IMG/VR virus record: IMGVR_UViG_2541047426_000030
DNA: 64,000 nucleotides
Origin: a virus
Lineage: Duplodnaviria > Heunggongvirae > Uroviricota > Caudoviricetes
Strand: one strand, 5' to 3'
Part shown: one piece after another, positions 1 through 12,000 of the stretch
Position numbering within the stretch: position 1 is the first letter of the stretch
Layout: every line of letters starts with the position of its first letter
Made by a program: the position numbers

Positions 1-3000
1 ATGGACAACGACAAAATTGATCAACACAGCGACGAAATTGAAGTTGAGAGCGAAGAAAAAGAGCGTGGCAAAAAAATAGAAATAGATGAAGATCGACTCC
101 CCTCCCGGGCGATGGCAATTCATGAGCATATCCGCCAGGATGGTGAAAAAGAGCTGGAACGCGACGCAATGGCACTACTGTGGTCAGCCATTGCGGCGGG
201 TCTGTCGATGGGCGCTTCATTACTGGCAAAAGGGATATTTCATGTCGAACTGGAAGGTGTGCCGGGCAGCTTCTTGCTGGAGAATCTCGGTTATACCTTT
301 GGTTTTATTATCGTCATTATGGCCCGCCAGCAATTATTTACCGAAAACACCGTGACTGCGGTACTACCCGTCATGCAAAAACCGACAATGAGCAACGTTG
401 GCTTACTTATGCGGTTATGGGGCGTCGTGCTGCTGGGTAATATTCTCGGGACAGGTATTGCGGCGTGGGCATTTGAATATATGCCAATCTTCAATGAAGA
501 AACTCGCGATGCATTTGTCAAAATCGGCATGGATGTGATGAAGAACACCCCCAGCGAGATGTTTGCCAACGCGATCATTTCCGGCTGGCTGATCGCCACT
601 ATGGTATGGATGTTTCCTGCAGCGGGTGCGGCAAAGATTGTGGTGATTATATTGATGACCTGGCTTATTGCCCTGGGTGACACCACTCACATCGTTGTCG
701 GTTCTGTTGAAATCCTCTATCTGGTGTTTAACGGTACGCTGCACTGGAGCGATTTCATCTGGCCCTTCGCACTACCTACTTTAGCGGGGAACATCTGCGG
801 CGGCACCTTTATCTTCGCGTTAATGAGTCATGCACAGATCCGTAACGACATGAGCAACAAGCGCAAAGCAGAAGCACGCCAAAAAGCAGAACGTGCGGAA
901 AACATTAAGAAAAATGATAAAAACCCGGCATAAATGGCGAGGGTTTAAGCAATCGAGCGGCAGCGTACTTACCCCGCAGTCCATTAGCGGGTATACTCAT
1001 GCCGCATTGTCCTCTTAGTTAAATGGATATAATGAATATAAGTATTAAGTCATTGATTTAAATACAGAAAGTGGCGAAATAATCGTCATATCAGTACCCA
1101 TTTATGTACACACCCCGTTAAGCATGCCCCGCACTTCCGTACGGGGCATGTTCTTTACTCCACTCCCACTTTTTTGTTGTACTCGCGGTTAAACCGATCC
1201 ACGGCAATTTTCATATCCCGCTCAACCGATTTCACCATCGCCGACTGTTGCGCCAGACTGAGAGTACTGTCGGCGTAAATGGCATCACGCTGTTTACGCA
1301 AATCCTTCAGTCTCTTCCGGGTATCCTGCATAAGCCCGTTCATCGACAATTTTCCGTTGTTCTCGTCAATGAACGCCGTTCTTTCTGCACCGGTCAGACT
1401 CTTCAGCTCTGCGTGATACTGCGCAACCTCTGTCATCCGGTCGTACATCTTCTGCTGGTCAGCATACGGCATCACCTCACCTGAAATTTTCCCCAGGAAG
1501 GGCACCTGCTGCTCCGGTATATCAATACCGTTCAGCGATTTCACCGCCGCATCCGTGGTTTTGGAAATGAAGCGCCCTGTCCCTCCGGAGATATAGTCAA
1601 TCCAGTATTTCAGTGATTCCGGCGTGACATCCACCGCACCGGAACGGTACTGGCTGCCACCAGAGAACGCATTCAGCCAGGATGCAAACGCCTTGTACGC
1701 TTCTGGCGTTGAACGTCTTCCCAGCTGGCTGTCAGGTTTTGGTGTACCAAACGGCATGTTCTCCTGGTAAATCTGCGCCCCCATGAAGTTTTCGTTCATG
1801 GCAAGATTCGCAAACGGACGCAGAATTGTCGGTGCTGCATTTTTCAGCAATGCCCCGGACAGTGTTTCCGACGTTTCACTGCCCACAGGACTGAATGCCC
1901 CAAGCACACCACCAACAACATTACCGGCAGCACGTGAAGCGGTCAGGTCGCCCGCTGCCACCCCTTCGGCTGTGTGACCAAGCAGGAAGAAAACGTTGTA
2001 CCCGTAAGGCAGAGGAATACTCCAGTACTCTCCGGCCTTGCCCCCGAACACCGATTTCATAATGACGAGGTTACGCTCTTTCACATGAGACGGCACCTTG
2101 TCATACCAGTTAACCCCGTCATCATCCTCCCCCGCAACACTGCGGTTAAGCGAGCCAAGCAGATAACCCGCTCCCACAGCTGCAAGCGCGATTTTCTGCG
2201 GTACATTGAGATTCTTCCAGCGAAGGCGCTCCAGTAACGGCCCGTCGCCATTAAGATGTCCGAGCGTTCTCACCAGGTTTGCGGTCCCCTGAATGCTGGC
2301 GTTGGCGAACATGTACAGCGAGTTCATCAGCGCTCCCTGCTCACCACGACGGTTAAAGTTCACCGTCATGTTTTTGGCAAGAGACGCCGCCTGCTGGCGT
2401 GACAAACCGGCATCACGGGCGTGTTTATAGGCAGAAAGACGCAGAGCGTTTTCAACCGCCCCGTTGGCATCCTCGACAAGGTTAAGGAACGAATTCCATG
2501 CACCGATACTCTGGCCTTTCCATCCTCCCTTCGCCAGCGATACAAGGCGATCCATTTCCTTCTGCTGGCCTTCAAGGTCACCCATGTTAAACCAGCCGGT
2601 TTTACCTCCGTCCTCAACAAACTCTTTCCACACCTTCTGCCACTGTGCACCTTTTCCCGTGAGGGTTTTACCACGCAGACTGGCGTATACGGCTGACATG
2701 GCAGAACGGCTGTCTTTCACCACAGCCAGGGCGGATAAGTTATCCAGCCCTTTCAGTTTACCGTCGCTCCTTCCCTGCTCCGCCTTCAGGTTCATCACCG
2801 CCGTCTGCACGTCACGGATGAAGTTACTGACCAGGAATTCCGGGTTATACGACGTGTTCACCGTTGCCAGGAAGCGGTTAACTTTCCCCAGCGTACGAAC
2901 AAAGGCATTGCTGGTTTCCGGTCCCATATTCTTCATCGCACGCATCAGGCGCGGATCATGGAGTTTGATGTAGTACGTTTTGCCGTTCTTTTTGGTGGTG

Positions 3001-9000: not shown

Positions 9001-12000
9001 TCATTATAGCCTTCGGTCATCGGCGTATTCAGCGCACGAACTGCACCCGGCGACATCTTACCGGTCAGCCATTCATCAGTGGCTTTGGCACCATCACTGA
9101 CAGCCTTACCGGTTGCCTTCAGACCTTTACCGACAGTATCAGTAACCGCGTTTTTGCCATCAGGCAGGGTATCGATGACCTCATCAGCCCCCCTGCTGCC
9201 ACCGGCAAAAATATCCTGCACAGTTGCGACACCCGGCAGCCCCATACGGCTGAACTCATTTAAAATACGCGCCCCTGTTTTTACCGGGCTCTGAATCATC
9301 GCATCACCGAGTCCACGGGCCATTTCCCCTGTTCCCCGGACGGACTGGGCGAAACCTTTACCCATTGTTGGCAATACATCGCCCAGGCTGAACGACGTAC
9401 TGTTATCCTTCCAGCGATTCGGATCAGAGAAAAATGCTTCATAGCTGTCAGTTTCGCCGGGTTGCTGAATGTTCAGGCTGTTACGATTCTGGTTACCGAG
9501 TTGCGCCTCAGGACGCTGTTCCTCTGAATAGGCCATACAGACTCCATAAAAAAACCCGGCACAATGGCCGGGCATCAGGAAATGGTATTAATGGAATATC
9601 GTGAATTACTGGGCGTAATTCTGTTTCAGTCCACGGATAAACTGAGATGCAGATGAAGCACTTTCATCTCTGGCCTGTTCCCCCCTGGCCTTTTGAATAC
9701 GGAGAAAATTCGCATACCCGTTCTCCAGCAATTTCTGATTCTGAGGTTCCAGCATTTCAGGCTGACGGGCCGCTACATTTCTGGCAAATGACAGCTTATC
9801 AGGATCATCTCCCGCCCAGTTGATAACCTGTTGCTGAAGTTTTTGTTGCTGAATTTTCTGTTGATGCGGTTGTGAACCAGTCGCAGCATAATATTCATCC
9901 ACCGCAGCCTGAGCATTACCGCCATTCTTGATCGCGTCCGCCGCTACGTTGCTGGCCCCCTTCTGAAGCTCTTTCAGAGAAAGTCCCTGCTGCTTCGGCA
10001 TAAAATAACCATAATTTTTCGATATCTCTGCAAATTTGCTGCGATCCCTGACCTGAGCGATAGCCTTATCAACGGGTATCGCCAGCACGGTTTGATCATC
10101 AGGGTGCGCACTGCCGTATTCTGTTACAGGTTTATGCGCGGTGGAGCCATCGCTGTATGTGAGATCAAGGCCAATAAGTACGTACCCTTCCTGCTGCGCT
10201 GGTACGATACTGCCAATCCTGGCCTCTTTTATCGTTTTGTCCCCGGTTGAATCAGGCATGCCAATACGCTGTTGTAGTTCCGGGGCAAACACGCCGGAAA
10301 GCACATCGAGATTTTCCGGGGTATTCAGCGAATCGATCGCCATGTCCGGCTTATCACCAAAGATTTTTTGCAGGTTGATCACGGCCTGACCCGCTTTCGC
10401 TGCATAGCCTTCGTTTGACATAAGAATTAATGGATGTCCCTTTGGCAGCTGCCCGAACAGACGCGTTGCAGCCTCCTGATCGCCAGCCTCAATTGCTTTT
10501 CCAAGCGCTTCCATTAGTGGCTGGCTATGGGCAATCATATCGTTATACTCAAGCCGTCGCTGGTTGTATTTCTGCAACTGGAGTCGCTGCTGCTCCATAC
10601 CCAGTGACGCATTCCGGTAATTCTGGTTAGCGTTAAACTCCCTCTCCTTCAGTGCATAATTACGGTCGTCAACTTTGGCTCTGTAATCAAAGTTCCGCTG
10701 ATCAACGTTTTTATTATGTTCAAACTGAGACTGCGCAAACTCAAAATCGCGCTCGTTATTTTTCTGTTGCCGGGCAAGCTGTGCTTCACGCAGACCAAGC
10801 TCCTTACGACGGGTCATTGCCTGGTCAACGGTGCTGAATCCGGCAAGTAACCCCTGTGCAAATCCGCTCATTCACCACTCCTTAAAACAAAGAACCAGCA
10901 ATGCCGCCAATTACTGCTCCAGCAACAGCACCAACAGGACCACCAACGGATGCGCCAATAGCCGCCCCCGTACCAATGCCCGTACCGATATTCTGCTTGT
11001 TCTGCGCTTTCTGTTGCGCCGCCATCTGTTTGTTCGCAGCCTCAATTTCTTCACGTCGTCTGTCTGCGTCACTTATTCCCTGTAATGCCTCACGCCGCGA
11101 CTGATTTGCAATATCCAGTAAACCGTATCCCATATTGCCCCCTTACGCTGCCACCAGTTGGCCGCCAACACTCAGTTTCTGTCTTGCCGGTGCAGAAGCC
11201 CCCGTCAGAATATTCATCTGGCGATCCTGTTCGGCTTCACGGATACCATTTTTCGCGCCAGCAATTGCCAGGGCATTACGTAACCCCAGCGTATTACTGT
11301 CGGGATTATCCGGGCGGTTTACCCCGTATCTCGCCATCTGGTTATCCTGCGCCATCTGCGCTGTACGGAGACTGGAAGTGGCAAGGCCTCCCACCCGTGC
11401 AAGCTGTGCATTCATCAGACTGTTGTTCTCCCCAAGGTCAGCCAGCCTTGCCACGCGGGGCAAATATCTGGTTCGCCAGTCGTCGTATTGTTGGCGTGTC
11501 AGCGCTGCTGACGTCTGCCAGTCACCCTGTGGGCGGTCTGCTCCTGAATAACCAGCCCTTGCGAGAGTTTCGTATTTGCCATACTCCATAATTACAGTCT
11601 CCAGTTCTGAGCCTGATGCTGAATGGCATTAGCGCCGGTGCCAGGTGTTTTAGCACCGCCACTTCCTCCGCTACCGCCAGCCTTATGCATCGCATATGCA
11701 CCTGCCGCACCCAGACCAGCGCCAACAAGAGAGGCTCGCCCCTGCTGTTTCGTAAACGCCGCCTGTGCATCCGATTTAGCTTTTGCCAGACTGCTGTCTG
11801 CCAGAGAGTTAAAACTCTGTAACGCATCCGCCTTCTGACCAGAACCGAGAGCAGCAACATCCTGTAGCCCGGCAACATACTTATCTGCCTGCGATACCTG
11901 CCCCCGTGTGGTTGTGTCAATCTGCCCGGTTACCTGGTCACTCTGGTTCGCATTCATTACCGCATTAAAACGACCACTGGATGGGTCAACGCCGGACTGA

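Follow-up and report, generated by a model that had tools for sequence, protein, structure and literature searches.

A giant cysteine-free virion protein of 933W-type Stx phages as a probable polyvalent protein with constant modules and exchangeable enzymatic cargo

Introduction

The toxin behind the most severe enterohemorrhagic Escherichia coli (EHEC) disease is carried by short-tailed Stx2a phages, and a single gene makes up 13% of the genome of these phages. What does so large a gene do for the phage? We address this question for the copy in the 64,000-nucleotide stretch of IMG/VR record IMGVR_UViG_2541047426_000030 (this whole stretch is referred to here as the window), which is a 933W-like Stx2a-converting prophage in which the gene is 100% identical to that of phage PA2 (Oslovirus, Sepvirinae). 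The same gene is L0134 in 933W (99.3% identical), vb_24B_48 in phi24B (its product is called gp47 in a preprint, 10.64898/2026.04.10.717836), and gp48 in PA2. It is present in 186 phage records at an identity of at least 90%, and 420 records from 419 complete E. coli genomes cover at least 80% of the first 12 kb of the window. RefSeq labels the product an "LPD5 domain-containing" or "LPD38 domain-containing protein." A literature search returned no relevant paper on L0134 and none on a polyvalent protein together with 933W.

The original prediction, made from the nucleotide sequence, was of a multi-domain protein, either a polyvalent protein or a giant ejection protein, that the virion carries and injects along with its DNA. 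Based on domain searches, comparisons with diverged homologs, structure prediction, and published virion proteomics, we conclude that it is likely an internal polyvalent protein of the 933W-type short-tailed Stx phages, built as an ejected chassis that carries enzymes as cargo. Earlier publications and databases already cover the gene, the family it belongs to, and the presence of its product in the virion. To these we add a corrected start codon, the recognition of LPD1 as part of a first zincin-like domain, the HExxxH ancestry and chassis status of a second one, an N-terminal module without a Pfam model, together with its glycine zipper, the absence of cysteine, and the lack of a solved relative for the C-terminal module.

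Results

The open reading frame (ORF) listing of the window gives a single unbroken frame of 2806 codons at positions 1155 to 9575 on the minus strand. Residue numbers used here are those of this mechanical ORF, and the probable true protein is residues 14 to 2806. Over the full 2,793 residues of that protein, its phi24B ortholog matches it at 97.1% identity, with both HExxH motifs present and no cysteine. Because the orthologs are this similar over their full length, the evidence from phi24B virions transfers to the protein of the window. In purified phi24B virions, gp47 was detected by liquid chromatography-tandem mass spectrometry with 10,962 peptide-spectrum matches (PSMs), second only to the capsid protein, and about 60% of its gel-slice PSMs came from the four highest-mass slices, above the slice of the portal (10.64898/2026.04.10.717836). 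The gp47 peptides, which in the supplement of the preprint are listed in aggregate and not by gel slice, sample every module between about residue 103 and residue 2801 in the numbering of the window ORF and include peptides from the low-complexity linker; the N-terminal peptide is not in that list. The protein is invisible in the phi24B cryo-electron microscopy (cryo-EM) map, and the authors propose that it is an encapsidated ejection protein (10.64898/2026.04.10.717836). A related giant, gp69 of phage JC1 (4,515 aa, annotated as "DarB-like"), is also virion associated by mass spectrometry. Packaging in the virion, as first predicted, is thus supported by an abundant, nearly identical ortholog.

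These data also bear on whether the frame is one functional gene or is instead a pseudogene, an open frame that arose by chance, or a set of several genes. Speaking for the latter readings, 3 to 19 small ORFs are annotated under the frame in some older GenBank records, and antisense ORFs are called inside the giant gene of phi24B. Against them, the frame is unbroken across the 186 phage records, the ratio of nonsynonymous to synonymous substitution (dN/dS) relative to the phi296 allele is 0.05 to 0.24 in each of seven regions (0.17 in the linker), and the virion peptides span both ends of the protein and come mostly from the highest-mass gel slices. The frame is one constrained gene throughout, under purifying selection, and the fragmented reading, to which we assign almost no probability, is refuted by these data. 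The uninterrupted 8.4-kb frame of the original prediction therefore stands, but its start and its length of 2806 aa almost certainly do not; initiation at the ATG at 9536, discussed below, gives 2,793 aa.

Four Pfam domains score above their cut-offs in the protein: LPD5 (residues 1064 to 1213; 153 bits, E = 6.5e-45), LPD1 (residues 1374 to 1453; 84.5 bits), MuF_C (PF18819; residues 1763 to 1852; 64.2 bits against a cut-off of 27.6), and LPD38 (165.7 bits; for its position and those of all other features, see Table 1). These four are signature domains of the polyvalent proteins of Iyer et al. 2017 (PMC5512222). Like such proteins, the giant protein combines unrelated domains, LPDs included, in one very large polypeptide (four Pfam domains and two zincin-like domains), and its gene lies among late genes, as the final gene of the tail/virion block, next to attR. 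Both the multi-domain character and the polyvalent-protein reading proposed at the outset are borne out by these observations. An NCBIfam scan gave only CLCA_X, below threshold (150 bits against a cut-off of 260), and phmmer searches of three segments against all PDB sequences gave nothing meaningful.

A finer module map was derived from BLAST against diverged homologs and from alignments. An exhaustive search for relatives of the N-module, carried out on representatives, found 100, and nearly all of the long ones are giants of 2,000 to 4,700 aa that have the module at their N termini; relatives occur in Vibrio and Aeromonas phages. Among 14 N-module giants that were scanned, 9 end in LPD38, and 13 have the second zincin-like domain (zincin-2), about 1,000 to 1,250 aa from the C terminus. 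Only 3 of the 14 have the first one (zincin-1, with LPD1) and LPD5, and the cargo found in these giants includes a Sno-type helicase, methyltransferases, ddrB-ParB, SNF2, InPase, and LPD39. Based on this distribution, we regard the N-module, zincin-2, and the C-module as constant and the middle of the protein as exchangeable.

The C-module behaves as a unit, in that homologs of 33 to 77% identity span 94 to 100% of it, while its partners vary (methyltransferase, ADP-ribosyltransferase [ART], tail-tip, or PBECR domains) or are absent, leaving a stand-alone protein of about 900 aa. In annotated phages it is found in Vibrio phages (41% identity), in Ralstonia GP4-like and Burkholderia Bcep22-like phages (26 to 27%), and in Bacillus phage Page. 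The Methanosarcina virus MetMV (MK170447.1, positions 40102 to 42492 of the record) also encodes a C-module homolog, with 28.5% identity over 92% and an E value of 1e-77, which is an unexpectedly wide host range for this module. The AlphaFold2 model of the C-module is confident (pLDDT 85.5, pTM 0.82) and mostly helical, with one beta-rich insert. In a Foldseek search of this model against 350,542 PDB chains, the best E value was 0.099 and the query-normalised TM scores were at most 0.1, and PDB sequence searches with the module found nothing. Despite this confident model, the C-module therefore lacks any relative among solved structures.

The N-module ends in a glycine zipper, in which G-x3-G is repeated four times and followed by basic residues. 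Its position is kept in 14 of 14 giant homologs of 18 to 32% identity, and it coincides with a moderate hydrophobic peak (Kyte-Doolittle [KD] value of 1.14). It is a candidate membrane-inserting segment. Beyond it lies the acidic linker. The original prediction spoke of long low-complexity linkers in the plural; one long linker is present (about residues 441 to 915), and the several others are short.

HExxH is expected 0.037 times from the composition of the protein and is observed twice, far above chance. The two separate motifs named in the original prediction, HEWFH (residues 1297 to 1301, window 5673 to 5687) and HEIIH (residues 1564 to 1568, window 4872 to 4886), are both confirmed and are invariant across homologs down to about 21 to 25% identity; they are 267 residues apart rather than the approximately 330 first given. 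In the AlphaFold2 model, the motif helix follows three strands in both domains, as expected of a zincin: HEWFH is in helix 101 to 117, after strands 24 to 27, 67 to 71, and 88 to 92, and HEIIH is in helix 361 to 380, after strands 316 to 320, 342 to 345, and 350 to 354 (segment numbering). Both regions model as zincin folds similar to solved zincins, so that structure prediction agrees with the metallopeptidase-like character proposed for them. The domains resemble protein or peptide endopeptidases (lethal factor, MtfA, PPEP, Spartan, ArdC, and IrrE), and in structure they match lethal-factor/ATLF-type domains and PPEP endopeptidases best.

The invariant residues of zincin-1 are H1276, H1297, E1298, H1301, D1304, E1388, and E1395. 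Later helices hold the candidates for the glutamate that would be the third metal ligand, namely the invariant E1388 and E1395 in domain 1 and the conserved E1620 and E1627 in domain 2. The invariant glutamates of zincin-1 fall inside Pfam LPD1, which therefore appears to form the C-terminal half of this metallopeptidase domain. A histidine that ends strand 2 and an aspartate three residues past HExxH are described as marks of a widespread phage-type MPTase clade by Iyer et al. (PMC5512222), and zincin-1 carries both. The same source describes an HExxxH variant of these MPTases. In most diverged homologs, the zincin-2 motif is HE-x-x-x-H (e.g., HEVIAHHGL), and these alignments place zincin-2 in the HExxxH clade, with one residue lost in the E. 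coli, Salmonella, and Edwardsiella lineage to give HEIIHH.

What would these two domains cleave? They might be host-directed effectors, toxin-like proteases such as anthrax lethal factor, rather than enzymes that process the giant protein itself. The structural matches listed above fit such a role, which is one of the options listed by Iyer et al. (PMC5512222), and gp47 appears to be largely unprocessed in the virion. The location of zincin-2 in the constant part of the protein, whatever the cargo, is a better fit to housekeeping processing, and no host target is known. We therefore consider an exclusively host-directed role for the zincins somewhat unlikely. Self-processing and host-directed roles are not mutually exclusive, and zincin-1, found in so few of the scanned giants, is cargo.

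The conserved features of the MuF_C domain are G.TP, K-H1765, DP.A, H1814, and N..AS(1829).YG. According to its describers, MuF_C has a PBECR (barnase/EndoU/colicin-like) RNase fold, and the MuF_C of phage Mu itself is inactive (PMC5512222). H1765 and S1829 are conserved in nine homologs, which would be compatible with an active enzyme. The phi24B preprint calls this domain a metallopeptidase (10.64898/2026.04.10.717836); MuF_C is not a metallopeptidase, and we conclude that the label is mistaken.

This label matters for the function that the phi24B preprint proposes, in which the protein forms a conduit that prolongs the short tail through the periplasm and a "metallopeptidase domain" digests peptidoglycan (10.64898/2026.04.10.717836). 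Podophages do require a trans-envelope channel, and in a Salmonella relative a phage lysozyme lies directly upstream of zincin-1, in place of LPD5, so that the family can carry a cell-wall-cleaving activity. In the protein of the window, scans with Pfam, NCBIfam, and PHROG detected no lysozyme, transglycosylase, M23, or CHAP domain. As a rule, metallopeptidases that act on the cell wall are LAS/M23/M15 enzymes, which lack HExxH, and the true zincins of this protein resemble protein and peptide endopeptidases. Since the peptidase activity was assigned to an RNase-like domain, the zincins are endopeptidase-like, and no cell-wall hydrolase domain was detected, peptidoglycan digestion is weakly supported, and we regard it as quite improbable.

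The stretch before and within LPD5 has the conserved motifs DFGE..GA.K and PLSK.FP.PDY. Among Stx phages, this slot is only 58 to 69% identical, and its synonymous divergence (dS) relative to phi296 is 1.23, against 0.1 to 0.5 elsewhere in the gene. The high dS points to recombination, rather than relaxed constraint, as the probable source of the divergence. The divergent patch covers residues of about 814 to 1213 (window 5937 to 7135), and the flanking zincin-1 is 98% identical.

A mosaic cargo region of this kind, with dS as high as 1.23 in the LPD5 slot, would also be expected if the giant protein were a dispensable anti-defense carrier, an accessory effector like DarB of phage P1 that is needed only on certain defended hosts and has no part in DNA delivery. 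C-module relatives with methyltransferase and helicase cargo are annotated as "DarB-like antirestriction," and polyvalent proteins are interpreted in this way by Iyer et al. (PMC5512222). However, the N-module, zincin-2, and the C-module remain constant whatever the cargo and are under strong constraint (dN/dS of 0.05 to 0.24), stand-alone C-modules without cargo exist, and the protein is abundant in virions. In addition, efficient infection of a laboratory host by coliphage PTXU04 depends critically on a distant relative, an LPD38 polyvalent protein (10.1101/2023.09.18.558157), which favors a core role over a purely accessory one. For these reasons, we consider it unlikely that the protein is only a dispensable carrier.

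The giant protein contains no cysteine in 2,793 aa, compared with about 28 expected from the mean of 1.0% cysteine in 16 other ORFs of the window (Poisson P of about 7e-13). Fourteen giant homologs of 2,194 to 4,665 aa have 0 or 1 cysteine each. The ejected giant proteins N4 gp50 and DEV gp71 are also cysteine free (Lokareddy et al. 2024, PMC11445570). We infer that the absence of cysteine is an adaptation to unfolded transit through the oxidizing periplasm.

The four ORFs that immediately precede the giant gene (421, 83, 148, and 218 aa) likewise have no cysteine in 870 aa, compared with about 8.7 expected, and their phi24B orthologs, which are 98 to 100% identical, were detected in purified virions. 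The reported PSMs are 1,634 for phi24B gp48, 523 for gp51, 129 for gp50, and 13 for an 86-aa frame (10.64898/2026.04.10.717836). The spreadsheet of the preprint labels gp48 "Transcription factor?" and its text dismisses a transcription regulation factor as a contaminant; in the batch sample, gp48 has 179 PSMs compared with 101 for the portal (10.64898/2026.04.10.717836). Its abundance and gel position suggest that gp48 is a genuine internal or ejection protein. The 83-aa protein (window 10882 to 11133, minus strand), annotated as "bacteriocin," begins with a charged helix, after which comes a long glycine zipper, GTGIGTGAAIGASVGGPVGAVAGAVIGGIAGSLF, a motif of the kind that ends the N-module; Pfam Gly-zipper_YMGG matches it below the cut-off (E = 9e-6).

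The ATG at 9536 is almost certainly the true start of the giant gene, and the first 13 codons of the mechanical ORF are almost certainly untranslated. The extension contains a terminator-like hairpin found by the terminator scan (9573 to 9554, minus strand; 6 of the 7 bp in the stem are G-C, and T7 follows), and a Shine-Dalgarno sequence, GGAG, at 9542 to 9545 lies 5 nt before the in-frame ATG. RefSeq places the start at the same ATG, the PHROG 616 profile of 2,793 positions aligns to residues 14 to 2806, and the 13-codon extension has 2 cysteines compared with none in the next 2,793 residues. The strong hairpin at 9554 to 9573 and its T7 run are inside the late operon, between the 421-aa gene and the giant gene; transcription past it would depend on Q-mediated read-through, or else the hairpin may set how much of the giant protein is made. 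Directly past the stop codon of the giant gene, at about 1113 to 1146 (minus strand), is another hairpin, CATGCCCCG...CGGGGCATG, with 9 bp in perfect pairing; it has no T run and is not among the terminator-scan matches. In the GenBank record of phi24B (HM208303), three antisense "hypothetical protein" calls lie within the giant gene (6192 to 6515, 8667 to 9047, and 9398 to 9769), and a predicted leader peptide is noted on the 13-codon extension; both are probably annotation artifacts.

The prophage adjoins the host gene yfdC (window 1 to 933), and its attR core is 123 bp downstream of the giant-gene stop codon, which agrees with the prediction of a last late gene before the junction, at the prophage terminus. 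Elsewhere in the prophage, there is a sharp composition anomaly at window 19001 to 20000 (GC 0.647, GC skew -0.28, AT skew -0.39), within a 645-aa ORF at 18698 to 20635 that, by size and gene order, may match the lateral fiber gp61 of phi24B (645 versus 649 aa). Three tRNA genes (Arg-TCT, Arg-TCG, and Met-CAT) are at 40972 to 41223 on the minus strand.

Table 1. Features of the giant gene and its surroundings in the window (residues in the numbering of the 2806-codon ORF)
Feature	Residues	Window position	Strand	Basis or remark
attR core of prophage		1008..1032	.	PA2 record attR feature aligned to window
Probable true CDS (2,793 aa + stop)	14-2806	1155..9536	-	RefSeq CDS limits; PHROG 616 profile; GGAG 5 nt upstream
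Upstream extension, 13 codons, probably untranslated		9537..9575	-	Terminator scan; sequence reading
N-module	14-440	8256..9536	-	Constant N-terminal unit of giant phage proteins; no Pfam model
Glycine zipper GAAFGAAMGAPFGAVAG	422-438	8262..8312	-	End of N-module; then RGRR
Acidic low-complexity linker	441-915	6831..8255	-	Pro/Glu/Gln/Ala-rich; composition
Pre-LPD5 segment + LPD5	916-1213	5937..6830	-	Pfam LPD5; most divergent slot among Stx-phage alleles
Zincin-like metallopeptidase domain 1	1214-1465	5181..5936	-	HEWFH; Pfam LPD1 appears to be its C-terminal half
Zincin-like metallopeptidase domain 2	about 1505-1680	4536..5063	-	HEIIH; HExxxH clade, from alignments
MuF_C domain	about 1730-1852	4020..4388	-	Pfam MuF_C
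C-module	1900-2806	1158..3878	-	Constant unit, about 900 aa
LPD38 within C-module	2489-2694	1494-2111	-	Pfam
Four upstream ORFs (421, 83, 148, 218 aa)		9606-10871, 10882-11133, 11143-11589, 11592-12248	-	Cys-free

Discussion

The explanation that we consider likely is that the giant protein is an ejected chassis with enzyme cargo. The chassis would consist of three constant parts, which are the N-module with its terminal zipper, an HExxxH-type zincin (here HEIIH), and the 900-aa C-module with LPD38, and it would handle incorporation into the head. At infection, the protein would exit through the portal and the tail channel in an extended form, ahead of or with the DNA, and the chassis would insert into or span the cell envelope together with the small cysteine-free virion proteins encoded upstream. 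The absence of cysteine would suit passage through the oxidizing periplasm. The variable middle, here LPD5, zincin-1 with LPD1, and the PBECR RNase-like MuF_C, would be cargo delivered at the start of infection. Zincin-2, and perhaps zincin-1, might cut the polyprotein into units after ejection or might cut host proteins, the RNase-like domain might act on host or defense RNAs, and the LPD5 domain might act on host targets. Ejection, processing, substrates, and any anti-defense activity are inferences.

Several points weigh against this explanation. The Kyte-Doolittle scan finds no strong or classical transmembrane helix, and the hydrophobic segments are weak (KD values of 1.1 to 1.4). For the C-module, neither structure nor sequence gives a relative of known function, and its proposed role comes solely from how conserved it is and where it lies. 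In the gel data, the species present in virions are mostly very large, so that any processing would have to follow ejection. The PTXU04 protein is a distant relative only.

The distribution of the modules allows a broader and more tentative proposal, which we think possible but would not favor. The N-module, the HExxxH zincin, and the C-module might together be an uncharacterized translocation chassis that is essential for podophage genome delivery and that doubles as a swappable enzyme injector. This would apply to 933W/phi24B, Vibrio, GP4-like, and Bcep22-like podophages and even to the Methanosarcina virus, the injected enzymes would be RNase-like, peptidase, methyltransferase-helicase, or ART domains, and the four small cysteine-free upstream proteins would be partners of the chassis. 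Such a system would be a phage counterpart of polymorphic-toxin delivery.

If the gene is required for DNA delivery, then it determines which E. coli strains become toxin producers, and if the enzymes of the giant protein disarm host defenses, then the gene shapes the spread of the phage. Constant end modules with interchangeable cargo would, if true, be a natural protein-injection device. The structure of the C-module is worth solving, as it is widespread, confidently modelled, and unlike anything solved.

Comparison with known systems places the giant protein among several groups of phage proteins. With the ejection proteins gp14, gp15, and gp16 of T7 and gp7, gp16, and gp20 of P22 it shares a proposed role, that of internal head proteins that exit ahead of the DNA and form a path across the envelope, and in length the giant polypeptide roughly equals the three T7 proteins combined. 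In contrast to the T7 and P22 proteins, it has no transglycosylase domain, and no sequence or fold similarity to them was found. The resemblance to gp50 of N4 and gp71 of DEV is closer. Those proteins are also giant, cysteine free, encapsidated, invisible in cryo-EM, and encoded beside genes for smaller ejection proteins, and they have helical N- and C-terminal regions around an enzymatic core, with about 1,300 aa separating their Zn/HExxH motif from the C terminus. The only link is a weak PHROG match to the virion RNA polymerase (vRNAP) of N4-like phages (phrog_2206, E = 0.007, residues 248 to 636). Unlike the N4-like vRNAPs, the protein of the window has no RNA polymerase domain detectable with Pfam, NCBIfam, or PHROGs, and hhalign of the C-module profile against residues 2100 to 3500 of N4 gp50 gave a probability of 0.3%, with a single-sequence target that limits sensitivity. 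We therefore rejected a vRNAP-like identity, and we read the resemblance as a functional and architectural analogy rather than as demonstrated homology. A tape-measure-like protein was also rejected, as the defining domains are absent.

Identity as a P1 DarB-type antirestriction protein was rejected because Pfam finds no DNA methyltransferase or helicase domain; the PHROG "DarB-like" match covers only residues 2364 to 2694, in the LPD38 region. Bcep22 gp75, JC1 gp69, and the Ralstonia GP4 giant share the C-module (26 to 27% identity over 85 to 100%), and the Bcep22-like and GP4-like phages have portal, capsid, and tail homologs in common with 933W and phi24B. Their giants differ in carrying methyltransferase and helicase cargo, in proteins of 4,500 to 4,600 aa, while the window protein has no such domains according to Pfam.

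The nearest known proteins are phi24B gp47 and 933W L0134, which are orthologs with the same position, motifs, absence of cysteine, and upstream genes. The differences from these two are allelic only, and in other Stx phages they are concentrated at residues of about 814 to 1213. The phi24B preprint describes neither the two zincin domains nor the end modules that are described here. With the polyvalent proteins, as presented in the available part of Iyer et al. (PMC5512222), the giant protein shares its size and multi-domain build, its late-gene context, and its MPTase hub domains, PBECR domain, and LPDs. That part of the paper lists LPD1 and LPD38 as domains of unknown function, whereas in the protein described here LPD38 is the core of a constant 900-aa module that is paired with an N-module for which Pfam has no model.

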